From Candidatus Moraniibacteriota bacterium (GTDB taxonomy: Bacteria; Patescibacteriota; Minisyncoccia; Moranbacterales; UBA1568): a stretch of DNA of 64,000 nucleotides. The notes beneath the pieces are model-generated. The model saw only the letters and a list, made by a program, of their open reading frames with translations. It ran no database searches and was not told the DNA's origin. Of this stretch, positions 6,876 to 62,805 are shown piece after piece. The position numbers and the translations under genes were made by a program. Position 1 is the first letter of the stretch, and every line of letters begins with the position of its first letter. Location: contig JAGOBM010000003.1 in the NCBI GenBank assembly GCA_017983435.1, positions 4,786 to 68,785 of the forward strand, in the 5' to 3' direction.

Positions 6876-7292
6876 TTATTTTGTATTCTCAGCTCCGGAA
6901 GATACCACTGACATATCCAATCCGGCTTTTTCTGCCAGAACCTTCTCGACACCAGGCTCGCCAATGTAGCACTGTCCATCCGCATAGAGGAAGGGCACCC
7001 CGATCTCTTTCGAATCAAGATTACATGCCTTGGCACGGCGTTCCATTTCCCTGGCATTCGTCCGATCTTTCCAGGTCTCTTTCTTCACGAATTGCACCTT
7101 CTCTGCGATCTTATTCGTCTCGATGAATTCATCGACTTTCTTGCAGTGTGGGCAGCCATCCCCCCAGTACAGCGTCATCTGCTCATCGAGCGGCCCATCC
7201 TGATTCGCTCCAGGATCCGACGACACCCCCCAGTAGATAATACCCGCCAAAACGCACGCGAGTAGGACAAAAAAAAGAGTCAGTTGTTTCAT
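6876..7292 (-). CDS. thioredoxin-fold protein (CPHC active site), membrane-anchored
   Basis: N-terminal TM/signal and WGDGCPHCKK CxxC motif. Confidence 0.6.
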   Translation of the reverse strand: MKQLTLFFVLLACVLAGIIYWGVSSDPGANQDGPLDEQMTLYWGDGCPHCKKVDEFIETNKIAEKVQFVKKETWKDRTNAREMERRAKACNLDSKEIGVPFLYADGQCYIGEPGVEKVLAEKAGLDMSVVSSGAENTK

Positions 7293-11643: not shown

Positions 11644-13416
11644 TCAATAGGTGGAGCGCAACGCATTGACGATGACGACCACATCGATCACCTCCTGAAG
11701 AATAGCTCCATAGACCGGTGGAATGAAGCCGAAAAAGGCGAATATCATGCCGATGAGAGAGAGTCCGATGCCGATGATAATGCTCTGCCTGGCCACCTGA
11801 TACGAACGGCGGCCAATATGCACCGCATCGCGGATTTTCCAGGCATCGCGGCCGAGAATCGCGACATCCGCCGCTTCGATCGAAGCACTGTTCTCAGTAC
11901 CGGAAAACACGATGCCCACATCGGCGAGCGCCAAGGCTGGCGCGTCATTCATACCATCACCGACCATGCCGACCAGACTCCCTCCCTGCTGCTGTCGCAA
12001 GACCAGGGCTGATTTCTTGGCTGGCGAACACTCCGCATAGACCGGGATACGGAAACGGCCGAAAAGCCGATGGGCATTGGCCCGTTTATCCCCGGTCAGG
12101 ATGCCAATCGAATAATCTCGTGTCCGGAAATATTCGAACAACTTCTCGACATCTTCCTTGATCGTATCGTCAAACGAGAACCGCGCGATGACTGTTCCTT
12201 CACAGGAAAGCTCCGAGATGATGCCGCTACCGGCATGTGACGCATCCGATTTGCCGATGCGATAGCGCTTCCCATCAATGACACCGTAGATACCGTCGCC
12301 GATCTTCTCTTCGACATGCTTGGCCGAAAGCAGTGCTCCTCCCCGGTCCTCATTGGCATGCACGAGACTCTTGGCTACCGGATGAAGAGAGCTCCATTCG
12401 AGCGCCGCAGCGATCTCGAGCACCTGCCGCTCAGTATAGAAAGCCTGCAGCACCTCGATTCCCTTGAGCTCCGGCTCGCCGAGCGTCAATGTCCCGGTCT
12501 TGTCGAAGAAAAGTGTCTTCGTCTTGGCGAGCGCCTCGAGGACAGACGGACTCTTGATGACGATGCTATTGCGGGCTGCCCGACTCAATCCCCCCAAGAA
12601 GCTCACGGGGGCTGCAATCAGGAGCGGACAGGGCGTCGCAATGACGAGTACCGCCAAGAAACGTTCCCAATCCTGGAAGACTATCAGCGCACCAAAAGCG
12701 AAAATGAGCGTCACAAGCGTAAACATCCAATTCGATCGTTCAGCCAGCCGCACCAGGGGCGACTGCTGCTGCTTGCCGCGCTCGACCAGCGTCAGGATTT
12801 TCCGATAACTCGAGTGCTCAAAATTCCCGCGAGCCTCAAGTAAGATCACCGGCCCGAGATTGACGCAGCCGCTTTTGACGAATTTCCCCTTCCGATATTC
12901 GACCGGTTCCATCTCTCCGGTCAGATTTGCCTCATTCAAAAGCGCATCATCCGCCAAGAGCGTCGCATCAAGCGGCACCATCTCATTGGTCCGAACCAGA
13001 AACGCTTCTCCTTCATTCACCTCCTGGATAGGTTTCGAAAGCACGCCGCTCTCGGTCTGCATCAACACTTCTTTGGGAAACTTATCAAACAGCCCTCGCA
13101 GCGTTTTCTCGGCACGGCGTGTCCCAAAGGATTCGAGTGCCGCGCTCACAGAAACCATCAGCGCGAGAACAGCTCCGGAAAGCCATTCCCCGAAAAATGC
13201 AGCCGTGAAGAGCGCCAGGAAAGCGATATAATCCAGATTCCATTTATGTTCCCGTATCCGCTCCCATGATTCGATACAGAGAATGCCGAGACCGACTGAG
13301 ACCGCCAAGGCGCGCAACATATCCGGAGCGACGAAAAACGAAACGCTCCCAAGCAGCACGATGATGATCGGAGCAAGAAACTCACGGCTGGAGAGCGCGG
13401 TACGCAGAGTATCCAT
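11644..13416 (-). CDS. P-type ATPase, P1B-5-like (TPCP motif), no N-terminal metal-binding domain
   Basis: DKTGTLT, MVGDGMNDAPAL and a TPCP motif in TM6. Start is set at MDTLRT to avoid overlap with the upstream protease. Confidence 0.8.
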   Translation of the reverse strand: MDTLRTALSSREFLAPIIIVLLGSVSFFVAPDMLRALAVSVGLGILCIESWERIREHKWNLDYIAFLALFTAAFFGEWLSGAVLALMVSVSAALESFGTRRAEKTLRGLFDKFPKEVLMQTESGVLSKPIQEVNEGEAFLVRTNEMVPLDATLLADDALLNEANLTGEMEPVEYRKGKFVKSGCVNLGPVILLEARGNFEHSSYRKILTLVERGKQQQSPLVRLAERSNWMFTLVTLIFAFGALIVFQDWERFLAVLVIATPCPLLIAAPVSFLGGLSRAARNSIVIKSPSVLEALAKTKTLFFDKTGTLTLGEPELKGIEVLQAFYTERQVLEIAAALEWSSLHPVAKSLVHANEDRGGALLSAKHVEEKIGDGIYGVIDGKRYRIGKSDASHAGSGIISELSCEGTVIARFSFDDTIKEDVEKLFEYFRTRDYSIGILTGDKRANAHRLFGRFRIPVYAECSPAKKSALVLRQQQGGSLVGMVGDGMNDAPALALADVGIVFSGTENSASIEAADVAILGRDAWKIRDAVHIGRRSYQVARQSIIIGIGLSLIGMIFAFFGFIPPVYGAILQEVIDVVVIVNALRSTY

Positions 13417-13441
13417 ACTTTTTTTTGGGCCATGACAGCTA

Positions 13442-14863
13442 TTATCGCTTCGTATCACGCACACGGACAGTGATACGCTCTTCGCCGTATTTCTTCTCAT
13501 GCCGCTTCCGTTCATCATCATGGAGACGCTGCCGCAGACTGGCTATCTCCCCCTCTTCGCGACGTATCTGCCGGACCAGCCAAAAGAGCGCTGCTCCAAA
13601 AATAGAGGAGAGGAACAGTATCGCCCCGAGCAAGGTCGCCATCGGAAGATCGATGCTTTCTGCACGATCCTTCACCATGTCCCACCGGGTATCGAGAGCC
13701 TGTCCGTTCGCCTGTATCGAGCGACAGCGCTCACGATACGGTTCCATCGATTTTTCCAGGGAAAAAATCTCATTCACGGACCCAGCCTGATGGAAATACT
13801 CAAAAGCCTCTCCACACCGCCGATGCTCATAGGCATCGATACCCTGAGTAAAGGCCCTAAAAATCTCATGCCGATCGAGTGCGAGTCCGATTTTCTCGGC
13901 TTCTTCCCGAATAAGCGCCGCTGGCAGGGCAAAAGCGAAATTATCGCCTGATGACCGCTCGAGCTCACTCGTCTGAAACGTGACCAACCCGACGACTTCC
14001 CCAAAATCATTGAACAGCGGCCCGCCGCTTGATCCCTGCGATACTTTGGCATCGGTCTGATAGATCGGAAAATCTTTGCTGGCAGCCGTCTTGATAGCGC
14101 TCACCACTCCGCGGGTAAACGTCGCTTCAGTCGGACTCTTGCTATTGAACTCGGCAGTCCCAGGAAAACCGAAAACATACGCCGTGCTTCCCACCGATAG
14201 CGTGCTTCCGGAGGCGATCGGCAGAGCTGGCAATCGATCCAGATCGACCCGGATGATAGCGACATCCCGATCATCTTCCATGAAGTTCTCATTCAGGCTT
14301 TCCACGCTGGCCGGAAACGCTTCGCGCACCAGATCAGCCGGCCGTTCTTTGATGGATCGGGGATCAAGCACAAAGGTCTCGGTCCGGAGATCGAATCGGC
14401 TATTCTCAATCACGGTCCGCAAGACTTGCTTACCGAATGCTTCGGCCCCGTCCGATTGCAGGAACGATTGTGCCTCCTCGTCCGAAAGATACAATACATT
14501 CTCATAGAAGGCCGCCATGGCCGATTCGGAGGCCAGCATCTGCTTGATCGTCTCCTGCGAGACGACATGGGCATTGGTCGCTATATATCCGTCCGGATGG
14601 ATGATCAGACCGCTGCCGGAAATATACTCATCCACGCTGATCTTGATTGGATCGACCGATGTATCGACCGCGATCAGTCCTTGGCGGACATCCACCTTTA
14701 TAGAAGCGATCTCAGCCTCGCCGGCCGTATGTGTCATGATGCGGGCCACGGACGGCTTGACGAGATTTGCTAGAACTTCAGGCGCATACGGACCAGCCGC
14801 GTGCACCCGGACAACCGTGCCGCAAGAGCCCAATAGAAGCAAGAGAACAAGAAGGCGTCGCAT
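13442..14863 (-). CDS. S1-family trypsin-like serine protease with C-terminal TM helix and basic tail
   Basis: HVV...DVAIIRV...GSSGGPLF catalytic triad context; N-terminal signal. Confidence 0.75.
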   Translation of the reverse strand: MRRLLVLLLLLGSCGTVVRVHAAGPYAPEVLANLVKPSVARIMTHTAGEAEIASIKVDVRQGLIAVDTSVDPIKISVDEYISGSGLIIHPDGYIATNAHVVSQETIKQMLASESAMAAFYENVLYLSDEEAQSFLQSDGAEAFGKQVLRTVIENSRFDLRTETFVLDPRSIKERPADLVREAFPASVESLNENFMEDDRDVAIIRVDLDRLPALPIASGSTLSVGSTAYVFGFPGTAEFNSKSPTEATFTRGVVSAIKTAASKDFPIYQTDAKVSQGSSGGPLFNDFGEVVGLVTFQTSELERSSGDNFAFALPAALIREEAEKIGLALDRHEIFRAFTQGIDAYEHRRCGEAFEYFHQAGSVNEIFSLEKSMEPYRERCRSIQANGQALDTRWDMVKDRAESIDLPMATLLGAILFLSSIFGAALFWLVRQIRREEGEIASLRQRLHDDERKRHEKKYGEERITVRVRDTKR

Positions 14864-21941: not shown

Positions 21942-22319
21942 ATGCTCATACACATATTCGGCAATCCCGATCTTCCCTGCGACGCGCTCCCCGTCCTGCT
22001 TTTGCCGCGCCTGGCGGAAGCCTTGCCGCAGTACACCTTCCGTTTCACTGATCCCAACGAGCTCGACCTTCCCCGAGAAGGCGAGGACTTCATCGCCATC
22101 GATACGGTCGACGGCCTCAAATCGATACGGGAGATAGGTATCGAGGAGATCGCAGCGCTCAAAGCCAGAGCGACGACCCATGATTTCGATCTTTCATCTT
22201 TCCTCTTGCTCGCGAAGAAACTCCGCCCGGGCATCAGTATCCGTATCATCGGCGTCCCGATGCAGAGCGAAGCGGATACGGCCTTCGCGACCCTAGTCCC
22301 GATTCTCGAAACCCTCTAA
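21942..22319 (+). CDS. hydrogenase maturation endopeptidase (HycI/HybD-like)
   Basis: About 126 aa; N-terminal FGNPDL, AIDTVD and THDFDL positions parallel HycI Glu/Asp/His. Convergent with the hydrogenase genes. Alternative start at 21897. Confidence 0.55.
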   Translation: MLIHIFGNPDLPCDALPVLLLPRLAEALPQYTFRFTDPNELDLPREGEDFIAIDTVDGLKSIREIGIEEIAALKARATTHDFDLSSFLLLAKKLRPGISIRIIGVPMQSEADTAFATLVPILETL

Positions 22320-22336
22320 AAACCTGCAATAGAAAA

Positions 22337-22363
22337 GAAAACCGCCTATCCAGGCGGTTTTTC
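22337..22363. terminator. bidirectional terminator hairpin AAAACCGCC-TATCCA-GGCGGTTTT
   Basis: Lies between the convergent protease and hydrogenase large-subunit genes. Confidence 0.55.
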
Positions 22364-22387
22364 TGATACTTCATACTGCGTCTCCGA

Positions 22388-23713
22388 TCAGATCTCCCGT
22401 AGCTTCAACTTGAGGAAGTGCGAAGCGCAGCTCATACACGGATCATAAGCGCGGATAATCTTCTCGCACTCGATACCGAGCTGGTCCCGATCCATCGAAA
22501 GATTCGCCTCGATGAATTCCCCGAGGTCCTTCTCGATCGTAATCTGATTCTGCCCCGTCGGAACGATAACCTCGCCCTTGATCACGATCCCCTTCTCATC
22601 GGTCTCGTACTTATGGTAGAGCGTCCCGCGCGGTGCTTCGACGACGCCGACACAGACCGCTGCCTGAGGCTTGATCTGCTGGAGCGGCTCTTTGACGAAG
22701 GTTGCGTTCGAGAGGATATCGATCGACTCATCCACCGAATGGAGGATGGCGATCGCCTGGGCCAAGCCGTTGTCATGCACATCGTGCGATGGGAACCGCT
22801 TGAGCGCTTCGGCCGCATCGCGCTTCGTGTTCGGATGAAAAGCGTCCTTGTTGAGATTGACACGAGCCAGCGCTCCGACCCGGTAGATCTGGCCATCAAA
22901 AGTATAACCAGAAGCTTCGGAATACGGGATGACGACGTGCTCAAGATGGCTCCGGTATCCGCTCTCATCGCACACCTTGCCATTCATATCCCAAAGTTCC
23001 CCCTCGAGATAGGAGAACGGATCCGACTTGAGACCGATATAATTCGTCTCGCGGACCAGTGAGAACGGGCAGTGCGCGAACAGCTCGATGGCGCGCAGTA
23101 CGGCCGGCCGGATCGCCTTGAGCTCCTCAAGCGATTTGTCCATCTCCGCCTTCTCCGGCACCTTGGCAAATCCTCCCGGCATGAGGAACGGCGCATGCAC
23201 ACTCCGCCCACCCGCCAAGATGGAGAGATGATTGCCGACCGACTTGATATCGAAAGCATCATGCAAGACATCGTGCTGCTTCGGATCATGCTCATCGAAC
23301 TCAAGCAGAGAATCCTTGCCGAAGAAATCCGGCGCGACGAAGACGAAGAGATGGAGCGCATGATCACGGATGATGAGTCCATGATACGCCAGGGTGCGGA
23401 GCAGCTTGGTCTGCTCGGTCGGCACGAGCCCGAAGCCTTTCTCAACCGCTTCGATGCTCGCCGCCAGATGCGCGTTGGAACAGGTGCCGCAGATACGCGC
23501 GAGCATCTGCGGGATAGCGATGATCGGCTTGCCCACCATCGCCTGGGTGAAAAACCGCTTGTATTCATTGATAGCGAACTGCACCGACGTCACCTTGCCA
23601 TCCTCGATCAGGACATCAAGACCGGCCGATCCCTCGATCTTCGTGATCTCTTTGACGCTGAACGAGCTCATTTCCGATACCTGATGCATAGACGAAAAAG
23701 TTACAAGAGACAA
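22388..23713 (-). CDS. [NiFe]-hydrogenase large subunit
   Basis: N-terminal RICGTCSNAH (L1) and C-terminal DPCMSCASHF (L2), with a short cleavable extension after the His; 441 aa. Confidence 0.85.
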   Translation of the reverse strand: MSLVTFSSMHQVSEMSSFSVKEITKIEGSAGLDVLIEDGKVTSVQFAINEYKRFFTQAMVGKPIIAIPQMLARICGTCSNAHLAASIEAVEKGFGLVPTEQTKLLRTLAYHGLIIRDHALHLFVFVAPDFFGKDSLLEFDEHDPKQHDVLHDAFDIKSVGNHLSILAGGRSVHAPFLMPGGFAKVPEKAEMDKSLEELKAIRPAVLRAIELFAHCPFSLVRETNYIGLKSDPFSYLEGELWDMNGKVCDESGYRSHLEHVVIPYSEASGYTFDGQIYRVGALARVNLNKDAFHPNTKRDAAEALKRFPSHDVHDNGLAQAIAILHSVDESIDILSNATFVKEPLQQIKPQAAVCVGVVEAPRGTLYHKYETDEKGIVIKGEVIVPTGQNQITIEKDLGEFIEANLSMDRDQLGIECEKIIRAYDPCMSCASHFLKLKLREI

Positions 23714-23727
23714 ATTACAATCCTGAA

Positions 23728-24231
23728 TTAATCCTTTGTTGGAGCCTCCACGACACCGAACTCAACCAGCGCGTCATTCAGAACCTTGATAAACGCTTCC
23801 TCGGACATCGGACAGCCATTCACTGTGGCATCCACGGTCACCAGCTCATCCAGCTTCTTGGCTTTCTTCCCATAATGGAATTTTTCCAGAAGAAAATGAA
23901 TCTCTTCCTGCACTTCCGGAGGAAACTCGTTGCGCTGAGTCGAAAAATTGCCAGCGACAGCGCAAGACCCGATCGCCACGAGCTTCGTAGCGAGCCCGCG
24001 GATCTCAAGCAGCTTTTCTTCCTGCTCCGGCGAAGCGATCGCCCCCTCGACAAAGGCGACGTCCATCTGATCGATCACGTTCTTCGATTTGAAAACCTTG
24101 GCATAGCGGATATCGAGGAGCGGCAGCCATTCCTGATAATGATCATTCAGATACTCCGCAAACATGACGGTACTATCCTCGCAGCAGGAGAACGAGAACC
24201 ATCCGATACGCAGTTTTTTTCCGGTAGGCAT
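23728..24231 (-). CDS. [NiFe]-hydrogenase small subunit, NuoB-like, single proximal cluster
   Basis: 167 aa with Cys at FSCCED, GSCAVAG and NGCPM, a NuoB/group-4-like 4-Cys pattern; 14 bp upstream of the large subunit. Confidence 0.7.
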   Translation of the reverse strand: MPTGKKLRIGWFSFSCCEDSTVMFAEYLNDHYQEWLPLLDIRYAKVFKSKNVIDQMDVAFVEGAIASPEQEEKLLEIRGLATKLVAIGSCAVAGNFSTQRNEFPPEVQEEIHFLLEKFHYGKKAKKLDELVTVDATVNGCPMSEEAFIKVLNDALVEFGVVEAPTKD

Positions 24232-24432: not shown

Positions 24433-24858
24433 TCAGTCATCGCATTTCACGCAGAGACACCCTTCTTTCGTCAGTATCCCTTCAAAATAATCCTTGCCAT
24501 AGTTATAGGTCAGCTCTTCACCAGCCTTGATCTGCCGACGGGACACGATGAATATGCGCCCGCGACGATTGATCGCCTCGCAGTTCGGCCGGCAGGAATG
24601 GTTGATATAGCGGGCCGTGTTCCAGCGCGGACTCCCATCGATATCGACACGCGTGCTGACATTGAAGACATAGCGATTATTGAGCGTATCGCCATGGCTC
24701 GAATGCAGACGATGGCCCACATATTCGATGATGGTCTCCCCCTTTTTGATCGCCTCGAAGGCATAGAGCCCGAGACCGGCGCTCGACCGCTTCACTCGGA
24801 CATCGAATTTTGATTTCGTCGCTTCCATACATTTAAAAAATATCACAGATAAGCACAA
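24433..24858 (-). CDS. SET-domain protein (putative protein-lysine methyltransferase)
   Basis: NHSCRPNC and ELTYNYG motifs plus a post-SET Cys cluster CLCVKC; 141 aa. Confidence 0.8.
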   Translation of the reverse strand: MCLSVIFFKCMEATKSKFDVRVKRSSAGLGLYAFEAIKKGETIIEYVGHRLHSSHGDTLNNRYVFNVSTRVDIDGSPRWNTARYINHSCRPNCEAINRRGRIFIVSRRQIKAGEELTYNYGKDYFEGILTKEGCLCVKCDD

Positions 24859-40664: not shown

Positions 40665-40746
40665 TCACGCGGTGAGATTCCTCAGCTTTTCAACGAATCT
40701 ATCTTCGCCTCTTCCATCTCCATGACCGGGGTACTCTCCGACTGAT
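40665..40746. repeat. about 80-bp direct repeat, copy 2 (overlaps the 3' end of the PDGLE gene on the minus strand)
   Basis: Plus strand encodes a relic dioxygenase C-terminus (NESIFASSISMTG); minus strand encodes the PDGLE C-terminus (PVMEMEEAKIDSLKS). Confidence 0.7.
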
Positions 40747-41035
40747 CCGGAATCGAAAAAATCCGGCTACCAAAAAGAAACAACATACCGAAAACACCGA
40801 GTGTGCCGATGATACCGGAGAGCGCTGTCGCTAGCCGCTCATTCTCTATACCCGGCATCTGGTGGTCCGGCATCAGCCCGGGCAGATATTGCGCCGATCG
40901 ATCGATGAAGCCCTGCTCCTGTGCGACTTTTTCCAATCCGTCCGGCGATGACGAAGCCAGAAGCGACAGGCCCCCACCAATCACCACGGCTAGAGCCAAT
41001 ACCTGCCACCACTTATTGTTCGTCTGATGATTCAT
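40682..41035 (-). CDS. PDGLE-domain protein (CbiN/NikN-like accessory component)
   Basis: SSPDGLEKVAQE motif, TM helices at both ends, overlaps the cbiM-like gene. Confidence 0.6.
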   Translation of the reverse strand: MNHQTNNKWWQVLALAVVIGGGLSLLASSSPDGLEKVAQEQGFIDRSAQYLPGLMPDHQMPGIENERLATALSGIIGTLGVFGMLFLFGSRIFSIPDQSESTPVMEMEEAKIDSLKS

Positions 41036-41762
41036 CTGGAAATGCCGCTACTTTGAAATGCCGCTGTATCAGAATCGCGAGGACAGCGACCGTAATCGCG
41101 CCTTCGGCCGCACCGATCACGATATGCAAGAGCGTCATCGCCGGCAGCACCGTCGAGAGCGGCTCTGTCCCGGAGATCGCCATTTCGAGTGCAGCCGCGA
41201 TCGCGGCACCGATGACCGATACCCAGGCCGCTACAAAAGCGCTGCGCAAGAATATCTTCTTCTTATCTTTGGCCCCACGCAGGAGAAACTGGAAAAAAGC
41301 GTAGCCGCCGAGAGCGCCGACCACTCCCATATTGAAAATATTGGCACCGAGTGCCACGATACCACCGTCGCCAAACATCAGGGCTTGCATCGAAAGAATG
41401 AGCGCCATGACAATGAGCGCCGCAAACGGGCCGACGGCCAGCGCAGCGAGCACGCCGCCGAGCAAGTGTCCGGATGTCCCATCCGCCACCGGAAAATTCA
41501 CCATCTGGGCCGCGAAGATGAGCGCTCCCGCGACCGCCATCCGCCAGACCTGCTCGCGTCCATATCTCGACAGCCGACTCTCCAGGCTCATCCCCGACTC
41601 TCCGCCGAAATCAGGAAACGATGCCAAACGCATCTTGAGCACCGGTATCTTTTCCATGAATGCCTGTCGGACCTTGTGCACGGCAAATCCGACCATGGCC
41701 GCGGCCGCACCGGCCAGACTGGCTGCTGCACCGCTATTGATAAACTCATCCGGAAGATGCAT
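41013..41762 (-). CDS. CbiM/NikM-family ECF transporter substrate-capture component (Co/Ni)
   Basis: N-terminal MHLPDEF (CbiM MHIxDG-type), about 7 TM, 249 aa. Confidence 0.75.
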   Translation of the reverse strand: MHLPDEFINSGAAASLAGAAAAMVGFAVHKVRQAFMEKIPVLKMRLASFPDFGGESGMSLESRLSRYGREQVWRMAVAGALIFAAQMVNFPVADGTSGHLLGGVLAALAVGPFAALIVMALILSMQALMFGDGGIVALGANIFNMGVVGALGGYAFFQFLLRGAKDKKKIFLRSAFVAAWVSVIGAAIAAALEMAISGTEPLSTVLPAMTLLHIVIGAAEGAITVAVLAILIQRHFKVAAFPDESSDEQ

Positions 41763-44637: not shown

Positions 44638-45015
44638 TTAAGCACGCTTCGATGCACCGAGCAGAGAATGGATGGCCGTCGCCAGGATCGACCAATAGAA
44701 AACAAAATAGATACCGACAAACGGAGGAGGTGGATCTTCCTTCAAGAAATTCACCTGAGGCAGAGCCAATGGTCCTATCAAAACAATTTTGAGAGGCAAT
44801 ATGATCACAGATGCCGTCCTCTTCCAGGCGATCAGTGAGTCACTGCCGGTATTCAGGATAGAATCGGGCGAATGAGGGAAACCCCGAGGGCCCGTTGATC
44901 CCAGAAGCGTCGTGGTGATAAACATGAAAACAAACCCGGAAACAACAAAGAGGATGACAAATTTTTTTCTTGAGATATTCATAAGCATCCAATACTCACT
45001 CTGTACGCATATCAA
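44638..45015 (-). CDS. small 2-TM membrane protein (paralogue of 53655-53999)
   Basis: 125 aa; about 75% identical to the 53655-53999 product (GPRGFP...IVLIGPLALPQ...FLKEDPPPPF); 4-bp overlap with the upstream CcdA-thioredoxin gene. Confidence 0.5.
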   Translation of the reverse strand: MICVQSEYWMLMNISRKKFVILFVVSGFVFMFITTTLLGSTGPRGFPHSPDSILNTGSDSLIAWKRTASVIILPLKIVLIGPLALPQVNFLKEDPPPPFVGIYFVFYWSILATAIHSLLGASKRA

Positions 45016-46772
45016 GAGAAGGTAAATGCGTATACCGCTGTCCCGGGTGTTTCAAATTCCAGACGCAGCGTGTGTTCACCAGCCACCCCGTTCCCATCAA
45101 AGAGCTCATAAAGCTTCTCAGCATCTACCGACACCCTTCCGTCAATGACATCCCCGCCAGACAGATCCCGCTCAATCACGTTCTGATCCAGAAATACCTT
45201 TACACTCCCCGATGAAGTATCATCCGACGGAGCCATGACCAGAAATACTTTCTTTCCATAAAAATGAATGCTCAGAGTGGCGTTACTTCCGGCGATGGCT
45301 CTTTCAGATTCCACCTTCCAGGCCCCGCTATAAGCAAAATAATGTTTCTTCAAACCAGTCGGCAGAGTAAATGCCTGCATCTCTCCGGTCACTCGCTCCG
45401 GCGATTGGAACCGCTCCATACGGTCGCTCCCCAGATACGTTTCCGGGGTCTGGCTTCTCCCGGGCGTATCGGCCACTATCCCGGTCAAAGTATCAGAACC
45501 CACCGTCCTCCCTGCCTCCTCCAAGAGACTCTGGATCGCTTGCTCTGTTTCTTGATAATTTCCCTCACCGAAATGATATTCGCGTATCCTTCCTTCGCTA
45601 TCTATCAAATAATGCGCCGGCCAATACCGATTATTATAAGCTTGCCAGGTGCCATACCGGTTGTCCTGAGCCACGGGATAATTGATTTTGTATTGCTCCA
45701 GGGCATCAGTGACATTGGCCGTCTTTTTCTCAAACTCAAACTCCGGCGTGTGCACTCCGATCACCACGAATCCCTGGTCTTTGTACTTCTCATACCAGCC
45801 CGTCACATAGGGGAGGGTCCGGATACAATTGATGCAGCTATATGTCCAGAAGTCGACCAATACCACTTTGCCACGCAATTTATCCATAGTCAGTGCCGAG
45901 TCAGTATTGAGCCATTGCTCTATACCCACAAACTCCGGGGCTTGCCCGTACTGAGGAAGATTTTTTTTCATATTTAATTTCGGCTCTTCTTTTTTAAGAA
46001 GCGGATTTTCTCCATCAACGCCCTTGAGTTCATCGAGTTTCTGTTTTACCGTATCGTTTTTTTCCAATCCATTCAGAAAGCTCTCATAATTCGGAAAGGT
46101 ATCCAAGAGCTTCGTCTGGAGCGCCTTATCATACCCAGTATAGATCGCTCCTGCCGCCAGAATCATAATCAGACCGAATACCTGCTGAATATACTTCGTA
46201 TATGGTGCCAGCACTCTGGTCTTCGTCAGTATCTTTTTCCCCAACACAGCCAGGATAAAGAGTGGCGATGCCACGCCGATCACGAACGCCACTGTGATCA
46301 GCACCACCTGAAAGTTGACAGCCTGGGTCGCAGCCAGAGCAGCGATCGTCGCCAGGATAGGACCAGCACAAGGCGACCATACCAGGCCTAAGGCAAACCC
46401 CGTCAGGAAACCGCCCCAGAAACCAGTCCCAGAACTTTGCGTCCACCGTCCGCCGAAAGAAGCGAAGCGGCTGACCATCCCTTCCAGTCGTGCCCCGAGA
46501 GCCGGGATAACAAGGGTCAACCCGAGCAAAGCTATCACGAAAACCGCGAACAGACGCAGAACATCAGGATCAAAAGGAATGATTTGAACCACCCAAGCGA
46601 GCGCGAGCGTCGCCAAGAGAAAACTCGTAGCCAGACCCGTGACGATACCGAGCGGCTTCCGCTCCCCGCCGGTCGCCCCGGATGATAACACGATAGGCAG
46701 TATCGGCCAGATACACGGCGCAAAAATCGTCACGACCCCTGATAGGAAGGCAAAAAGAACGAGAATGGTCAT
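45012..46772 (-). CDS. CcdA/DsbD-type membrane domain fused to a TlpA/ResA-like thioredoxin domain
   Basis: N-terminal CcdA (FAPCIWP), redoxin domain WTYSCINCIRTLP; 586 aa. Confidence 0.75.
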   Translation of the reverse strand: MTILVLFAFLSGVVTIFAPCIWPILPIVLSSGATGGERKPLGIVTGLATSFLLATLALAWVVQIIPFDPDVLRLFAVFVIALLGLTLVIPALGARLEGMVSRFASFGGRWTQSSGTGFWGGFLTGFALGLVWSPCAGPILATIAALAATQAVNFQVVLITVAFVIGVASPLFILAVLGKKILTKTRVLAPYTKYIQQVFGLIMILAAGAIYTGYDKALQTKLLDTFPNYESFLNGLEKNDTVKQKLDELKGVDGENPLLKKEEPKLNMKKNLPQYGQAPEFVGIEQWLNTDSALTMDKLRGKVVLVDFWTYSCINCIRTLPYVTGWYEKYKDQGFVVIGVHTPEFEFEKKTANVTDALEQYKINYPVAQDNRYGTWQAYNNRYWPAHYLIDSEGRIREYHFGEGNYQETEQAIQSLLEEAGRTVGSDTLTGIVADTPGRSQTPETYLGSDRMERFQSPERVTGEMQAFTLPTGLKKHYFAYSGAWKVESERAIAGSNATLSIHFYGKKVFLVMAPSDDTSSGSVKVFLDQNVIERDLSGGDVIDGRVSVDAEKLYELFDGNGVAGEHTLRLEFETPGTAVYAFTFS

Positions 46773-46858
46773 ATAGTGTTTTAAAAAAATATTACCAAGA
46801 GGAACAGCTCTGCAGAAACTGTCCCGGCTTCGTACTACTTTCTACGCCAATAGCCTCA

Positions 46859-47413
46859 TTATTTCACTTTGGTAAGCAACTCGCTCAATCCCTCGCTCCC
46901 AGACCATTTCGCGATCATATTTCCAGACGCGTCAACCTGCACCAGTGTGTGCTGATAGGTGACACCATACTGTTTCTTAAGATCCGCATTCTTGTCGTAA
47001 TCCACATCAAGAATCAGCACGTTCTGCGGAATCCGACTGAGATTCGCTTTGATATCGGCATCCAAAGCACGACAGGTCGGACACCACGAGGCACGGAAGA
47101 AGAGCACTACTTTGCCATCTTTCGCAAAAGCAATCTTTGATGCGTCATATGAGGCATATTGCCCACCCTTGATCATCACATCGCTTTGCTTCATCATGGC
47201 ATCTTCTTTGACCATCGTCTCCGGCTTTTTCTCCATCATGGCCTCAGGTTGCTGCATAGCCTCTTCTTTTTTCTCCATCGCTCCTTTTTCAGCCGTGACC
47301 TTTTCTTCCATCATGGCCTTGTCTTGCATAGCCTGTTGATTGGACGTATACCACCAGCCGCCAAGGGCAACAGCTATTCCCAACACAATCACTCCCATTA
47401 TCATTTTATTCAT
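46859..47413 (-). CDS. thioredoxin-family protein, membrane-anchored
   Basis: FFRASWCPTCRALD. Confidence 0.75.
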   Translation of the reverse strand: MNKMIMGVIVLGIAVALGGWWYTSNQQAMQDKAMMEEKVTAEKGAMEKKEEAMQQPEAMMEKKPETMVKEDAMMKQSDVMIKGGQYASYDASKIAFAKDGKVVLFFRASWCPTCRALDADIKANLSRIPQNVLILDVDYDKNADLKKQYGVTYQHTLVQVDASGNMIAKWSGSEGLSELLTKVK

Positions 47414-48968: not shown

Positions 48969-50051
48969 CTACTTTCTAAGCAGATCAAAAAATGCCCTAT
49001 GGAAATAAAGTCTTTCTCTGCCGATTTTTTCACTTTTGAGCAGGCCTATCCTTTCAAGCTCTACCAGATATTTTCCTGCAGTTTTTTCTTTCACGATTCC
49101 AGCATCGACAAGAAACTTTCTCTTGGAATACGGCAACTGAAAGAGAGTGTTTACCAGTTCTTTCGAATAGATATTCGGCGCCTTTTCTTTGATCATCTGC
49201 TCAGTCGATTCCATTAGAGAGCAGATATCATGGATCTTTTGCTCTGTATACTTTGCGGTCTGCTCCACAGCGTCCAGCATATATAAAATCCACGATTCCC
49301 ATTCCTCTCTTTCCGTCACTCCGCGCAACTTCACATAATAATCACTCTTATTCTCCAATATATATTTACTAAGATACAGGATAGGATGTTCCAAGAGACC
49401 CGTAAGAACGAGGAAGAGGATATTCAAAATACGTCCCGTCCTTCCGTTTCCATCATGAAAAGGATGAATAGACTCAAATTGATAGTGCAGAACCGCCATC
49501 TTCACCAAAGGATCTATTCCGTCCTTCTGATCATTTATGTACTGTTCCAAATTCTTCAGTTTCTCAAGAATAACAGCCTCTCCTTCCGGTGGCGTGTACA
49601 CAATCTCTCCCGTGGCAGGATTGGCAATTTTTGTCCCAGGAATCTTTCGAATACCTCCGTCCGTCTGTTTGATAGCCTGCATCATCTCTATGAGAACTCT
49701 AGCACTGATAAATCCGTTCTCGCGTATAAAGCCATAGCCGTACCACAATGCTTTCGGGTAAGAAATAACTTCTTTTAAATTTGGATCTGTGACGCTTTCC
49801 AATGCTAACGACTGGTAGAGCTCATCATTCGTGGTGACAATATTTTCAATTTCCGAACTCAACTTCGCTTCCTGAAGAATAACCGCATTCGCAAGCAGAG
49901 ATTCATTTGGCAATCTTTTGTTCGATGCATCAAGAGCAGCGAGAGCGGCTCTAGCCCCTATCGCTTTTTTCAAAATAGCTGCGGTTTCTAATTCCTTCAG
50001 GGGCGGAAGGAGTGGTAAATCGTTATATGGTTTCTGACGATCAAAAGACAT
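48969..50051 (-). CDS. Fic-family protein (putative AMPylator)
   Basis: HPFHDGNGRTGR Fic motif; 360 aa; lower-GC gene. Confidence 0.85.
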   Translation of the reverse strand: MSFDRQKPYNDLPLLPPLKELETAAILKKAIGARAALAALDASNKRLPNESLLANAVILQEAKLSSEIENIVTTNDELYQSLALESVTDPNLKEVISYPKALWYGYGFIRENGFISARVLIEMMQAIKQTDGGIRKIPGTKIANPATGEIVYTPPEGEAVILEKLKNLEQYINDQKDGIDPLVKMAVLHYQFESIHPFHDGNGRTGRILNILFLVLTGLLEHPILYLSKYILENKSDYYVKLRGVTEREEWESWILYMLDAVEQTAKYTEQKIHDICSLMESTEQMIKEKAPNIYSKELVNTLFQLPYSKRKFLVDAGIVKEKTAGKYLVELERIGLLKSEKIGRERLYFHRAFFDLLRK

Positions 50052-51541: not shown

Positions 51542-52543
51542 TCAACCATTGTTTCCATGAGCAGAGAACCATTGACCTTCGCTGCTCTTTTTGAGAACTT
51601 TGCCCGTCGGAATAGAGGCGGAGTGGTAGAAATAATCAAAAACTTTGCCAAGGGTAATGACAGGAACATCGGGAATAACATGCGCACGGACCAGAGGAAG
51701 ATTCCCAAACGGCACTGATGGCAACAGGTGATGTTCAAAATGATACCAGGTATGATGGGGCAGAAATAAGGCCCGCTGCCATACAGTGGCATAAAAACGG
51801 TGCGTACCCGGAGTGCCGACATGTTCAGTCCAAACCCTCAGTCGGAAAACTGCAAAACAGGACGTGAGGAGAGAGAATATCCAAATTCCAAATACCCAAA
51901 GCATACCAGCGTACCAGAAAACACCCAGAATAAGCCCCCAGTACAGAAACATCTGGCTCTCTATGGGAACGTCTTTGCCCCCTTGTCCAGAAAGCGTGTC
52001 TTCTGTCTTGGTATCGAGAGCGCCATGAACATACCTCTTACCGAAAAACTGCAAAATGGTTCTTCTCTTATACCATACGATTCCGATACCCGTTAAGTCG
52101 CTCAGGATGATGCCTAGGAGTCGGACAGGCGAAATGGGTATATCCCAGGCTGGCGCCTCCAGAAACTTGCTCTCCAGCTCTGGATCTCTTTCCGTACCAA
52201 GGAATCGATGGTGACGGAAGTGATACTCCCGATATTCCCCAAGGGGGAGAAAAATCGGCCAGCTCGCCAACGCTCGTGTCAAAAAATCGTTCAGCTTCAG
52301 ATTATTCGTTATGAGCCAGTGGGCACCATCATGGGAAAGAATGCCCAGCGCGTGTTGGCGTGTACCGATGACAGCAATCGCAAAGAAAGCCGCCCACCAG
52401 GTCTGAAATGAAAACACAAAAACATAGGCCATGAGAATGACAGACCAATCGAAAAATACATTTCCGAGCCAGCGCCAGATATTCTTGTGGCCTAGCTGAG
52501 GCTGAGCAAGAATGGAGTCGCCCGATAATGACCGCTCTTTCAT
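51542..52543 (-). CDS. membrane fatty-acid desaturase family protein
   Basis: Three His boxes (HDGAHW, HRFHH-like YHFRHHRF, FEHHLLP); multi-TM. Confidence 0.8.
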   Translation of the reverse strand: MKERSLSGDSILAQPQLGHKNIWRWLGNVFFDWSVILMAYVFVFSFQTWWAAFFAIAVIGTRQHALGILSHDGAHWLITNNLKLNDFLTRALASWPIFLPLGEYREYHFRHHRFLGTERDPELESKFLEAPAWDIPISPVRLLGIILSDLTGIGIVWYKRRTILQFFGKRYVHGALDTKTEDTLSGQGGKDVPIESQMFLYWGLILGVFWYAGMLWVFGIWIFSLLTSCFAVFRLRVWTEHVGTPGTHRFYATVWQRALFLPHHTWYHFEHHLLPSVPFGNLPLVRAHVIPDVPVITLGKVFDYFYHSASIPTGKVLKKSSEGQWFSAHGNNG

Positions 52544-54227: not shown

Positions 54228-55286
54228 CTATAGCTGATATTTCCCCCTCACTATTTCTTTTGCAACGTCGTCTCTTACCTGCTTTTTTGGCGACTTAAAC
54301 ATCAGGCTACTTATTTCCTCCAAATGACCCGACTCACCGTTATCTAACGCTATTTTCATAGCCCGAATGACATCAACCATTATCCCAGCACTATTCGGAC
54401 TATCCTCAACACTCAACTTTAAGTCCACTTCAAACGGAATATTTCCAAATTGACGGCCTTTTATGTTGATATAACAGACTTTATTATCCTTCAAATGTGG
54501 TATAAAATCGCTTGGTCCGATACGAACATCTGCCAGACCCCCATCAAGAATAGAGGTCACCGCCTGAGTTTTAGATTTCCTCTTACTCAATAGACGATTC
54601 TGATCGAGCATATTTTCAAAATCTGAATTCCCACCGACATTCAGTTGAAATGTACTGTCAATAACTTGTCCCCGATCTTCTATGAGTCGCGATAATACCC
54701 TGTGAATGATTGTGGCTCCGACTTGAGACTTTATGTCATCACCAGCGCACGGCAATCCTTTCTCCCTAAATTTATCTATCCACTCATCGTCAGAACAAAT
54801 AAACTCCGGTATGGCATTGATAAAACCGATACCAGCATCAATAGCTGCCTGCGCATAAAACCGGGCGGCTTTCGCGCTTCCAACCGGAAGATAGCATATG
54901 AGCATGTCCGCTCCGGAACGCTCCAATTCACCGATGACATCGCATTCTTTTTGCGACTCATCGACAAGAAAAGTCTGTCGCATATGATCAGCAACACCAT
55001 CCAGAATTGGCGCCTTCTGAACAATCACTCCAGTAACCGAGACATCGCATATCTCTTTCGTGCAGTTCGATCCAGCATTGATCGCTACAGAAAGATCATT
55101 CCCAACTTTTCTCTTATCGACATCAAATGCGGCAACAAACTCTATGTCACTTACGTGATATCCACCAAATTCAGCATGAAGTAGACCAACGACTGGATTA
55201 TCCTTATTCGTATAATACACACAGCCCTGTATCAATGAACTTGCACAGTTGCCGACCCCGGCTATGGCTACCCTTATCTTTCCCAT
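54228..55286 (-). CDS. inositol-3-phosphate (myo-inositol-1-phosphate) synthase, short type
   Basis: N-terminal Rossmann fold VAIAGVGNCASSL; 352 aa like archaeal/bacterial MIPS; low GC. Confidence 0.65.
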   Translation of the reverse strand: MGKIRVAIAGVGNCASSLIQGCVYYTNKDNPVVGLLHAEFGGYHVSDIEFVAAFDVDKRKVGNDLSVAINAGSNCTKEICDVSVTGVIVQKAPILDGVADHMRQTFLVDESQKECDVIGELERSGADMLICYLPVGSAKAARFYAQAAIDAGIGFINAIPEFICSDDEWIDKFREKGLPCAGDDIKSQVGATIIHRVLSRLIEDRGQVIDSTFQLNVGGNSDFENMLDQNRLLSKRKSKTQAVTSILDGGLADVRIGPSDFIPHLKDNKVCYINIKGRQFGNIPFEVDLKLSVEDSPNSAGIMVDVIRAMKIALDNGESGHLEEISSLMFKSPKKQVRDDVAKEIVRGKYQL

Positions 55287-55871: not shown

Positions 55872-57032
55872 TTACTGATAAATAAGTTCCAAAGATTCCA
55901 ATTGTTTAGCGAGGGAAAATTCAGATCGGATAGAGCGCTTCCCACCACTTACCAGTATAGCTGACAAAACACTGTCATTCCTAATACGCAGTATTTTATC
56001 GGCCAGATCCTTCGGATCCATTGGTTTTGACAACAACCCGTTGACCTCATCCTTTATGACCTCATCTATACCGAAAGTGTTGCTCCCGATTACTGGAATA
56101 CCAGCGGCCATTCCCTCAAGCAAAACGATCCCCAGCCCTTCCACGTGTGATGGCAATACACAAACATCACAATTTGCAAGAACATGTGGCATAGTCTCCA
56201 GACTTTCTTTGTCTACAACAATTTTTACCCTATCGAGAAGTCCATTCTTTTCTATATACTCATTGATCAGCGTCAGATACTCACCAGATCCATTCTTCAC
56301 AGATGTGGGAACAAAAAGCTTTATCTTTCTATCACCAAGAATTTGTATGGCTTTTATAAGATCTAAAATACCCTTTCGACGTATCATTCTCGCTGGACAC
56401 GCAACGATAAAATCATCCTTCTCGTAACCGTATCGTGTCCTCCACGAGGGATCTTTTTCTACCGAAAAATCCTTTTCATCGATCCCGTGATAAACAAGCC
56501 TAGTTTTGCTTTCGTCAGCCCCCAACTTCAATGCCCAATCGTAGTAATAACGACTTGGGCACACAAGCGTATCATAAAACGGCAGTTTTATGATAAATGA
56601 AGCGAAAGCTTTCTCTACGCTGTAATCGGAAAAATGACCAATAATTTTCCCTTCTTCAGGAATCGGCGTGCTGTGAAACGTAAATATAGTCTTCTTGGTC
56701 CTCACTAAGGACAAGAGTGAAGCATAGGCAAGCCCTGGCATGAAGTTATGAACATGCACCACATCAAAGGTATCATCCGAGATAGCCTTCGCAAAATCAT
56801 CGAGAATGGCGCGAAAAGAAGCTTTCCCTTTCTCGAAGTCCCTAAAACCTCCGATTCTTATCACGGAAAATCTATTTTCTTCATTCTCTGACTCTGAAAG
56901 TGCGCTGTCACCTCCGGTGATAACGGTAACTTCGTGTCCCCTTTCAGAGAGTCTGGTCGCCAAAAGATACATATGTGTTTCCCCTCCACCGATTTGTGGC
57001 GGAAAACTGTGATTGATAAGACAGATCTTCAT
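55872..57032 (-). CDS. glycosyltransferase family 4 (GT-B, retaining)
   Basis: N-terminal MKICLINHSFPPQIGGGETH; C-terminal EGLGIVLLEGMAAGIPVIGS E-x7-E motif. Confidence 0.8.
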   Translation of the reverse strand: MKICLINHSFPPQIGGGETHMYLLATRLSERGHEVTVITGGDSALSESENEENRFSVIRIGGFRDFEKGKASFRAILDDFAKAISDDTFDVVHVHNFMPGLAYASLLSLVRTKKTIFTFHSTPIPEEGKIIGHFSDYSVEKAFASFIIKLPFYDTLVCPSRYYYDWALKLGADESKTRLVYHGIDEKDFSVEKDPSWRTRYGYEKDDFIVACPARMIRRKGILDLIKAIQILGDRKIKLFVPTSVKNGSGEYLTLINEYIEKNGLLDRVKIVVDKESLETMPHVLANCDVCVLPSHVEGLGIVLLEGMAAGIPVIGSNTFGIDEVIKDEVNGLLSKPMDPKDLADKILRIRNDSVLSAILVSGGKRSIRSEFSLAKQLESLELIYQ

Positions 57033-57078: not shown

Positions 57079-57810
57079 CTAACCACTCATCCAAAACTCT
57101 TGGAAAAGAAACCCCAGATATCTTTTCCAAGTACCAAGGTCATCCCATTCGTTTCTCAAGATGTAGCATTCCCCACCGTGCTTCGCATACACCCATTCGA
57201 CAATGTCTTTCGTCATATTATATGCGCCACCAATAGACAATTGGTCTATGCACTCTCTCAGCGCGTCAAACCGAAATATGGGAATCCCGGTATATGCCAC
57301 TCTTGATTTCCGATGAAAAAACTTATGAAGCACTTTCTCGGAATTGAGTTGCACATCTATATAGTCATGGTGTGCCTCATCGCTATAGATGCCAACCATC
57401 AACAACGCGGGGGCGTTTCTTTCCACATAATATCGGAGTAAGTCCTGAACCGGCAGACGGACAAGATGGTCCCCATTCAGAACGATTACGACATCCGGCG
57501 CATAGTCACAAACTGTCTGCCAATGTTGTAGTACTGCCCCGCCGGTATCAAGTGCCGCCAGCTCAACAAGGACAGAGACATTCGGGTACTTCTCCCGGAC
57601 ATAATGCGCCACCTGTCGAGACTTGTACCGGGCAAGCACAACCGTCTTCCCTTCAACACCAGAGATGCCTCGGACATCACTGCTTTCGATGGCATAGTCG
57701 AGGATTTTCCTGTTGTTCATTGCTGGCAGAAGCGTCTTTTGGCTAAAAAACGTGGCTGGCCTAAGCCGAGTTCCTTTGCCACCAGACAAAACCAAAAACA
57801 TGACTTTCAT
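57079..57810 (-). CDS. sugar-/alcohol-phosphate nucleotidyltransferase (NTP-transferase fold)
   Basis: LSGGKGTRLRP motif. The N-terminal extension of the longer ORF merely translates the terminator repeat and is rejected. Confidence 0.65.
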   Translation of the reverse strand: MKVMFLVLSGGKGTRLRPATFFSQKTLLPAMNNRKILDYAIESSDVRGISGVEGKTVVLARYKSRQVAHYVREKYPNVSVLVELAALDTGGAVLQHWQTVCDYAPDVVIVLNGDHLVRLPVQDLLRYYVERNAPALLMVGIYSDEAHHDYIDVQLNSEKVLHKFFHRKSRVAYTGIPIFRFDALRECIDQLSIGGAYNMTKDIVEWVYAKHGGECYILRNEWDDLGTWKRYLGFLFQEFWMSG

Positions 57811-57893
57811 GGCAATCTCCCAAATATTTGAATGTGCTACCCCGACCGTATCATGCATAACCGAAATGGTCAACGGTTCGAATCCCGTTTTAG

Positions 57894-57930
57894 GTAACAA
57901 AAAACAAGGCTTTTGCAAGCCTCGTTTTGT
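57894..57930. terminator. bidirectional terminator AACAAAAAACAAGGCTT-TTGCA-AGCCTCGTTTTGTT, immediately 3' of tRNA-Asn
   Basis: Stem CAAGGCTT/AAGCCTCG with A-run and T-run flanks; master copy of repeats B, C and D. Confidence 0.6.
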
Positions 57931-58005
57931 TGGCTCCGACGGCTGGATTCGAACCAGCGACCAAGTGGTTAACAGCCACCTGCTCTACCACTGAGCTACG
58001 TCGGA
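57931..58005 (-). tRNA. tRNA-Asn (anticodon GUU), CCA encoded
   Basis: Hand-folded cloverleaf: acceptor UCCGACG/CGUCGGA, D-arm GCUC-AGUGGUA-GAGC, anticodon arm GGUGG-CUGUUAA-CCACU, T-arm GCUGG-UUCGAAU-CCAGC, discriminator G, CCA. Confidence 0.85.
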
Positions 58006-58129: not shown

Positions 58130-58390
58130 TCAGCCGAAAGCAGCTGCGAAGCCGCTCGGTGATGCTGGGAGAAACCCCATATCGGCCATGAGCGCGAGGG
58201 TCTTCTCGGCTTCTCCGATATTGAGCTTCTGGAGCGCGTAGCCGACATGGACGATGACATAATCGCCGACCGCGATATCTTCGACGAGCGCGAGCGAGAT
58301 CTGTTTCTTGACCCCGCTGATATCGACCGTCGCCATATCGGATCCGTCGTTGGCCAGCGCGACAACTTCCGCTGGGATACTGAGACACAT
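58130..58390 (-). CDS. hypC: hydrogenase maturation factor HypC/HupF
   Basis: N-terminal MCLSIP signature, 86 aa. Confidence 0.8.
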   Translation of the reverse strand: MCLSIPAEVVALANDGSDMATVDISGVKKQISLALVEDIAVGDYVIVHVGYALQKLNIGEAEKTLALMADMGFLPASPSGFAAAFG

Positions 58391-62610: not shown

Positions 62611-62805
62611 ATATTTCGTCTTTCGACGGTAGCACACAATCGCGTATCCGTCATTACTCAAAACCGAGAGGGGAAACCGCGTCATCGCTTAGCTTCAAAG
62701 GAGTTTTTCCGATGCCGTGTTCCGACGCCAAGCAAGGAAAAAATTCTTTGAAGCTAAACGATTCCTGGACAAAACAAAAACCGCCTCGCGGCGGCTCTGA
62801 TCAGT

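Follow-up and report, generated by a model that had tools for sequence, protein, structure and literature searches.

A two-gene hyd2-type [NiFe]-hydrogenase of a Candidatus Moraniibacteriota bacterium, with a predicted single-cluster small subunit and flavoprotein fusions among its relatives

Background

Bacteria of the candidate phyla radiation (CPR) carry a clade of [NiFe]-hydrogenases, hyd2, which is related to group 3b and specific to these organisms (Jaffe et al. 2020, BMC Biol 18:69, PMC7304191). In that paper, hyd2 small subunits have a mean length of 164 aa vs about 250 aa, no beta or gamma genes are co-located with them, some PF07992 proteins and an Fe-S family lie near some hyd2 genes, and the function was graded 'uncertain'. 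A four-subunit enzyme of the 3b type is present in some Moranbacteria, as reported in a paper on the hydrogenases of Moranbacteria and Berkelbacteria (PMC10811913). A literature search on hyd2, on truncated Patescibacteria small subunits and on their fusions returned nothing beyond Jaffe et al. 2020 (PMC7304191). The subject of the present study is a two-gene [NiFe]-hydrogenase encoded on contig JAGOBM010000003.1 of a Candidatus Moraniibacteriota bacterium, within a stretch of 64 kb which was analysed as a whole and is referred to below as the window. The clade to which it is assigned here, hyd2, is widespread, with thousands of homologs in CPR bacteria of groundwater, sediment and wastewater whose energy metabolism is poorly understood.

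The group 3b sulfhydrogenases (Hyh; SHI and SHII of Pyrococcus furiosus, Pf) are cytoplasmic alpha-beta-gamma-delta enzymes. They have an Fe-S beta subunit, a gamma subunit for FAD and NAD(P), and a delta (small) subunit of about 250-260 aa which holds proximal, medial and distal clusters and has the proximal motif CxGC. In group 3d HoxHY, and in HydS/HydL of the bifurcating HydABCSL, the small subunit has a single-cluster architecture and electrons pass from one [4Fe-4S] cluster straight to the partner module. The PF01058 fold is also common to NuoB/PSST of complex I and to the group 4 hydrogenases, both of which have membrane subunits. A tandem CC is a trait of complex I NuoB (cluster N2), and CxxC is retained in group 4 hydrogenases, eg HycG.

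Classification of the structural genes

About 100 related loci in total, including 80 further metagenomic ones, were compared with the window. All the open reading frames (ORFs) named in an earlier reading of the same DNA, the original prediction, were present at their coordinates, and its description of a two-gene [NiFe]-hydrogenase with canonical L1 and L2 motifs and a C-terminal tail was borne out. The large subunit (LSU) matched PF00374 (E=1.3e-24), its L1 and L2 motifs read RICGTCSNAH and DPCMSCASH, and the Ni-Fe ligands C67, C70, C418 and C421, together with H424, were invariant in 30 homologs. The nine residues that follow the L2 histidine, FLKLKLREI, are the predicted target of proteolytic maturation. 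The longest ORF gives 441 aa from a TTG at 23713 with AGGA 7 nt upstream; an alternative start, the ATG at 23689, gives 433 aa, the same length as the homologs.

The LSU was also group 3-like, as had been proposed. Its best NCBIfam models were ShyA (240 bits) and HydA (204), followed by VhuA (153) and FrhA (98), and the equivalog cut-offs, 700 for ShyA and 880 for HydA, lie far above these scores. The best PDB match was the alpha subunit of Pf SHI (9nez_D, 3e-58), with MvhA at 5e-44 and HoxH at 1e-28, and there were no NuoD or HycE chains among the best 60 PDB matches. The closest genomic loci came from Moranbacteria, Lloydbacteria and Patescibacteria metagenome-assembled genomes (MAGs); identity of the LSU to the proteins of the closest loci, from Moranbacteria/Moraniibacteriota and other Patescibacteria MAGs, was 81-94%. 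In a neighbour-joining (NJ) tree a long branch separated all of about 90 LSUs from Pf SHI alpha; the tree is rough, has a single outgroup and no bootstrap or other support values, and contains no hyd1 sequences.

The small subunit (SSU) matched PF01058 (E=2.3e-18) and has exactly four cysteines, C16, C17, C90 and C140, which are kept in at least 99% of 111 homologs, as is the motif CCEDS with the tandem C16/C17. Together they make up a single predicted [4Fe-4S] site, the proximal one. The protein aligns only to residues 3-155, whether to the 261-aa HydD model or to Pf SHI delta, ie it is without the C-terminal ferredoxin-like domain of about 100 aa in which canonical group 3b delta subunits bind the medial and distal clusters. 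On these two counts, the four Cys and the alignment to the first 155 of 261 residues, the single-cluster small subunit of the original prediction was upheld. Among the best 120 homologs, lengths ranged from 139 to 213 aa, nearly all being 160-190 aa. In HMMER alignments C17 falls on the first Cys of the C-x-G-C motif in group 3b, 3c and 3d small subunits, the position of the second Cys is occupied by an invariant Ser (S20), and the extra Cys lies one residue before C17.

Sequence matches of the SSU in the PDB were to group 3 small subunits only (Pf SHI delta, 9nez_A, 2e-12), and no NuoB or group 4 chain was matched even at E<=10. The AlphaFold2 (AF2) model of the SSU, with a pLDDT of 90.9, was compared with known structures using Foldseek. 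The N-domain of Pf SHI delta gave a TMq of 0.72 and a TMt of 0.48, HoxY (5xf9_C) and HydS (7t2r_E) aligned over their full length with a TMt of 0.68-0.69, and NuoB/PSST chains scored lower, at around 0.55. From sequence and model, then, the SSU is a predicted group 3 small subunit cut down to the flavodoxin-like proximal-cluster domain. The original prediction had likened its Cys pattern to that of group 4. The tandem CC motif stands, but it is the only likeness, and it is a NuoB trait and not one of group 4 hydrogenases, so the comparison is only loosely right; with no sequence match to group 4 or NuoB and a lower similarity of fold, the 'group 4-like' class was rejected.

The proximal motif is not uniform in the wider family. 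Some fusions (described below) have CSEDS, which leaves three Cys, and in single-cluster relatives further away the motif reads GCEGC or CDEGC; these variants were seen among proteins P0370, P0363, P0367, P0371, P0242 and P0267. This variation suggests a plastic ligation of the proximal cluster, possibly with a non-Cys ligand or a 3Fe cluster.

Because of its CPR relatives, the 167-aa SSU, the long-branch 3b-related LSU and the lack of beta and gamma genes, the locus is assigned to the published hyd2 clade, of which it is an ordinary member, and not to a new class. No essential difference from hyd2 (Jaffe et al. 2020) was seen. The CPR host is the same, the SSU is similarly truncated (about 164 vs 167 aa), and a HypC family is found near the relatives. 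The window is otherwise CPR-like too, with type IV pilus genes, PilB/PilT and few biosynthetic genes. The original prediction had presented the combination of subunits as still to be classified, and had named as the contrary outcome a known subgroup with a small subunit of about 170 aa and partners elsewhere in the genome. Such a subgroup, the first half of that outcome, does exist, since the combination is already covered by hyd2 in PMC7304191.

Group 3b supplies the best LSU match, is likewise cytoplasmic, and has a homologous SSU N-domain, but the present locus differs from it in several respects. Neither beta nor gamma is encoded here: the window has no HydB/HydG-type gene, and none turned up when the recurrent families of neighbouring genes were compiled for about 90 loci. 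The SSU has four Cys, covers 155 of the 261 model positions, and has CC in place of CxGC. With group 3d and HydABCSL it shares its size and single-cluster architecture, and one relative, P0370, resembles group 3d in having the SSU fused to a NuoF/HoxF-like FMN module. However, the HoxH match is weaker than that to 3b (1e-28 vs 3e-58), there are no HoxE/F/U genes here, and most hyd2 partners are PF07992 FAD proteins, unlike the complex-I-type diaphorases of group 3d. Complex I and group 4 are set apart by their membrane subunits, none of which adjoin the genes here, and by the LSU, which is not NuoD/HycE-like.

Electron partners in related loci

The original prediction had found the electron partner of this enzyme not to be evident. 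That is correct for the window but not for the family, in which clusters of ferredoxin (Fd), flavoprotein, SSU and LSU genes, and also gene fusions, were found. In locus L012 (Lloydbacteria) the SSU forms the C-terminus of a 629-aa protein, the N-terminal 410 or so residues of which are a PF07992+PF14759 flavoprotein, joined to it by a 45-aa linker of Pro, Ala and Ser. A search with this fusion gave at least 14 clusters of similar ferredoxin-reductase (FdR)-type fusions, 570-629 aa in length and 45-99% identical, and several of these clusters occur on 5-12 independent contigs. Their linkers are of low complexity and varied, which argues against a frameshift artefact. The nearest matches of the FdR-type flavoprotein are ferredoxin, rubredoxin and putidaredoxin reductases. 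In L017 the gene order is fusion-LSU-protease.

In L096 and P0364 the fusion partner of the SSU is a thioredoxin-reductase (TrxR)-like protein. This flavoprotein (the fusion domain in L096, and a separate gene in L054) retains a redox-active CVxC and has thioredoxin reductase 5nii as its best match (E=5.7e-46). In P0370 the SSU is fused to a NuoF-like FMN module, and this contig then has a 430-aa LSU, a 132-aa ORF and DUF6390, in the order known from hyd2 loci. That NAD(P)H-type flavoproteins of three unrelated families are each fused to one and the same SSU is a strong Rosetta-stone argument that the single [4Fe-4S] would exchange electrons directly with a flavin.

Unfused partners were surveyed by clustering all the neighbouring ORFs of the related loci, and were counted in the 55 non-redundant loci for which 3 kb or more of upstream sequence was available. 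Fusions were present in three of the 55. In ten, an unfused PNDR gene was directly upstream of the SSU gene; nine of these ten gaps fell between -8 and +38 nt, so translational coupling of the two is likely in those loci. An Fd gene was upstream of the PNDR gene in five of the ten. A PF07992 flavoprotein was encoded within eight genes of the SSU in 19 of the 55 loci, and 26 had nearby at least one of a flavoprotein, a three-Cys ferredoxin of 86 aa and pyruvate:ferredoxin oxidoreductase (POR). POR and acetyl-CoA synthetase (ADP-forming), ACD, are often near hyd2 genes in relatives; in Lloydbacteria the order is NifU-Fd-PNDR ... ACD-PORb-PORa-SSU-LSU.

The sections of PMC7304191 covered here make no mention of the fusions, the tight Fd-PNDR-SSU-LSU clusters or the block of protease, DUF6390 and EamA genes described below. 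The function of hyd2 has been open since 2020, and the fusions provide a concrete, testable partner hypothesis for the whole clade. They are also indicative of an NAD(P)H-linked [NiFe]-hydrogenase of very small size, which would be relevant to H2-driven cofactor recycling and to the wiring of hydrogenases to flavoproteins.

Proposed electron path and alternatives

We consider it fairly probable that the locus encodes the core of a cytoplasmic, group 3b-related hyd2 enzyme of CPR bacteria which is linked to NAD(P)H and/or ferredoxin and, as we infer from the relatives, has its partner encoded elsewhere in the genome. Since the medial and distal clusters are missing, the single cluster would be expected at the protein surface, where a soluble partner encoded by a separate gene would be in direct electron exchange with it. 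The path would be NAD(P)H <-> FAD/FMN <-> [4Fe-4S] <-> [NiFe] <-> H2, and a small ferredoxin reduced by POR would feed the same node. The partner would be a PF07992-type (or similar) flavoprotein encoded in trans, beyond the 64-kb window, and the enzyme would allow a fermentative CPR cell to vent or recapture reducing equivalents as H2.

A number of observations weigh against this proposal. Searches with tblastn of the Fd, PNDR, NifU, POR, ACD, DUF6390, EamA and F8 families against the whole window gave nothing except a short match of DUF6390 to hypC, and Pfam annotation of the approximately 55 larger window ORFs revealed no partner genes. The window is thus empty of flavoprotein, ferredoxin and POR genes as far as these searches go, and the earlier claim that no partner genes lie nearby is confirmed. 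The ten Moranbacteria loci closest to the window likewise showed no partner over a distance of 10 kb, and neither did the 10 kb on either side of the locus in the megabase-scale Moraniibacteriota contigs CP064989.1 and CP064994.1. The flavoprotein-linked loci belong mostly to one derived clade, and the basal clades are without such a link except for L054 and L096, as placed in the rough NJ tree with its one outgroup and no support values; flavoprotein coupling may therefore be neither ancestral nor universal. Lastly, NAD(P)H-driven evolution of H2 is thermodynamically uphill except at low H2.

Several of these points would suit a strictly ferredoxin-dependent, H2-evolving enzyme, in which POR-reduced Fd docks on the exposed [4Fe-4S] of the SSU, there is no flavoprotein in this lineage, and the flavoprotein links are a specialisation of other clades. 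POR and the three-Cys ferredoxin cluster with hyd2 in many loci, no flavoprotein gene adjoins hyd2 in the window's clade or the basal clades, and transfer from Fd to H2 is thermodynamically favourable. However, the window is also without ferredoxin or POR, and the partner in the covalent SSU fusions is always a flavoprotein and never a ferredoxin; we regard this alternative as unlikely. The TrxR-like partners, with their CVxC and best match to 5nii, and the abundance of exported thioredoxin/DsbD-type proteins in the window would be in keeping with an H2-uptake enzyme which serves thiol/disulfide redox, as an H2-dependent TrxR-like system, and not NAD(P)H balancing. This is quite improbable, given that the TrxR-like fusion is rare (two representatives vs at least 14 FdR-type clusters), that the FdR-like and NuoF-like partners are without a dithiol site, and that the window contains no TrxR.

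Whether the enzyme is simply a canonical group 3b sulfhydrogenase with its beta and gamma genes elsewhere in the genome was also considered, the best LSU matches being 3b enzymes and the four-subunit type being present in some Moranbacteria (PMC10811913). This was rejected as very improbable. The SSU is without the entire C-terminal domain through which delta is connected to beta in Pf SHI, more than 100 homologs are all truncated in this way, and no beta- or gamma-like family recurs among the neighbours in about 90 loci, a result also obtained by Jaffe et al. (PMC7304191). Least credible of all is a decaying or non-catalytic remnant, eg a sensor or pseudo-enzyme, although hypC is the only Hyp gene visible and there are no partner genes. 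The invariant metal ligands and the purifying selection described below led to the rejection of a pseudogene or relic, and a conserved dedicated protease and thousands of homologs also speak against it.

Beyond the NAD(P)H- and/or ferredoxin-linked enzyme with a trans-encoded partner which we favour, we offer tentatively, as a view which could well be mistaken, that hyd2 stands as a modular subgroup in its own right within group 3 and is not a degenerate 3b. Its single-cluster, tandem-Cys SSU would dock directly, as a universal plug, onto interchangeable NAD(P)H flavoproteins of the FdR-like, TrxR-like or NuoF-like kind, it would have its own reduced maturation set (the HycI-like protease, a HypC-domain DUF6390 and EamA), and the enzyme in the window would be a free-standing form with its partner in trans. 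If this were true, the fused forms would be the simplest NAD(P)-linked hydrogenase known, with one flavin, one [4Fe-4S] and one NiFe site.

Maturation and metal-uptake genes

A homolog of the protease gene lies close downstream of the LSU gene, nearly always in convergent orientation, in 42 of the 51 loci for which the downstream flank spans 3 kb or more. The window protein alone matched no Pfam or NCBIfam model. Within its family, PF01750 (HycI) matched five of ten members below threshold (best E=1.7e-4), and there were weak matches to the NCBIfam models NiFeSe_H2_mat, hupD, hydrog_prot and frhD. Alignment of the family with E. coli HycI/HybD/HyaD using hhalign also gave a weak match (E=0.014), in the register of which D14, D54 and H80, all invariant in the family, fall on the GNxxxxD/E, D and H positions, respectively. 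A PDB profile search with the family gave no hydrogenase-protease match, and a single-sequence AF2 model of the window protein (pLDDT 51) was too poor for a fold search. On the strength of the weak Pfam, NCBIfam and hhalign matches and the gene position, the gene probably encodes a divergent hydrogenase maturation endopeptidase. The convergent HycI-like protease of the original prediction is therefore kept for its triad, its position and the weak matches of its family, while the window protein by itself would not have been recognised by Pfam.

That hypC lies about 34 kb from the structural genes, and that the metal-uptake genes are dispersed as well, had been pointed out before and is correct. 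In relatives L010 and L001, hypC directly follows the protease gene, and the order in L010 (6052-12329) is DnaG-RpoD-SSU-LSU-<protease-hypC. The window has the order DnaG-RpoD-M15 peptidase-hypC. Because DnaG-RpoD flanks the hydrogenase in L010 but the hypC side in the window, the comparison indicates that the 'dispersal' of hypC is the footprint of a rearrangement in which the hydrogenase genes moved by about 34 kb. No hypABDEF genes were seen in the Pfam annotation of the approximately 55 larger window ORFs. The CbiM/PDGLE pair has no adjoining Q/O (ECF) components and, as predicted from its domains, takes up Ni or Co; it is a possible supply route for nickel.

Outside the window's clade, the protease gene is followed by DUF6390 (PF19927, about 245 aa) in 33 of the 51 loci and an EamA transporter gene occurs in 31, often together with a small HypC. 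The window is without DUF6390 and EamA (tblastn) but has a plain HypC. The only PDB profile matches of DUF6390, of which L051:12046-12786 (-) is an example and which is found in 43 other loci, were to HypC/HupF and covered about 75 residues at the C-terminus (E=0.009-0.02). Within the protein, an MDxCRISWGKV motif resembles the N-terminus of HypC, and C22 and C155 are invariant. No description of DUF6390 was found in the literature search; the protein may be a hydrogenase maturation factor not characterised so far.

A further gene of about 150 aa, without a Pfam match, is present near the LSU gene, mostly directly after it, in 11 hyd2 loci (L046:6832-7287 (+), L038:10343-10789 (+) and nine others). 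Its product is rich in His and Cys, with the motifs FPCAE, CFP and HHGHxGxC, and might act as a nickel chaperone or as a third subunit.

Locus layout, transcription and selection

The features of the window are collected in Table 1. The gap from the SSU stop to the LSU start is 14-38 nt, depending on which LSU start is used, and contains no terminator; the median gap in 67 related loci is 11 nt. Because of this short, terminator-free gap and the median in the relatives, co-transcription of the two genes is very likely. The hairpin between the convergent LSU and protease genes has A and T runs on its flanks, and for that reason could act as a predicted terminator in both directions. A sigma-70 promoter scan of 21.7-24.9 kb gave no match. 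The element TGGTAGAAT, about 30 nt before the SSU start codon, is extended -10-like; it was spotted by eye and is unsupported by the promoter scan.

Table 1. Coordinates of the hydrogenase genes and of other features in the window
Feature	Position	Strand	Remarks
Hydrogenase small subunit (SSU), hyd2-type	23728-24231	-	167 aa, PF01058
[NiFe]-hydrogenase large subunit (LSU)	22388-23713	-	433/441 aa, PF00374
HycI/HybD-like maturation endopeptidase, divergent (predicted)	21942-22319	+	~125 aa; convergent with LSU
Terminator-like hairpin, 10 bp	22338-22361	.	AAAACCGCC...GGCGGTTTT; consensus scan, pattern match only
HypC/HupF-type maturation chaperone	58130-58390	-	86 aa, N-terminus MCLSIP, PF01455, E=1.9e-25
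CbiM/NikM-type metal uptake component	41013-41762	-	PF01891, E=1.2e-49
PDGLE-domain protein	40682-41035	-	PF13190, E=5e-16
SET-domain gene	24433-24858	-	PF00856, E=5.4e-23; upstream of SSU
DnaG	60793-62685		
RpoD	59122-60546		
M15 peptidase	58436-59062		
Fic/DOC	48969-50051		low-GC region
Fatty-acid desaturase	51542-52543		low-GC region
Myo-inositol-1-phosphate synthase	54228-55286		low-GC region
Glycosyltransferase	55872-57032		low-GC region
Nucleotidyltransferase	57079-57918		low-GC region
tRNA-Asn	57931-58005		end of low-GC region
DsbD-transmembrane/redoxin/thioredoxin-like fusion and adjoining membrane-anchored thioredoxin	45012-47413	-	fusion 586 aa
Secreted glutaredoxin-like protein	6876-7292	-	
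P-type (E1-E2) ATPase	11644-13521	-	~9 kb from hydrogenase

The LSU and SSU genes were compared with those of the four nearest orthologs. Values of dN were 0.04-0.15 and dS was above 1 or saturated, and dN/dS was 0.14 or less wherever it could be computed for the LSU, SSU and protease genes. All three genes of the hydrogenase locus are therefore under strong purifying selection.

Neighbouring genes and other features of the window

The SET-domain and pseudouridine-synthase neighbours named in the original prediction were both confirmed by Pfam. Only the closest Moranbacteria relatives (L005-L009, L011 and L013) have the SET-domain gene in this upstream position; it is absent from there in L001, L010, L003 and all more distant loci. 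Its synteny is lineage-specific, with no sign of a functional link to the hydrogenase. The product is lysine methyltransferase-like, and its best NCBIfam match, a weak one, was to the Legionella effector AnkI/LegAS4.

Between about 47000 and 58000 the GC content of the window is 0.43-0.47, compared with about 0.55 elsewhere. The genes in this region are listed in Table 1, and it ends at the tRNA-Asn gene; it resembles an island gained by horizontal transfer, with a tRNA gene as its insertion site. The gene for the DsbD-transmembrane/redoxin/thioredoxin-like fusion adjoins that for a membrane-anchored thioredoxin, and these proteins, with the secreted glutaredoxin-like protein, are a predicted extracytoplasmic thiol-redox module which by position is unrelated to the hydrogenase. 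P-type ATPases are also encoded within 10 kb of hyd2 in about ten other loci (eg L053:3786-5621 and L099:6204-8549), and this recurrence could reflect metal (Ni/Co?) transport or coincidence.

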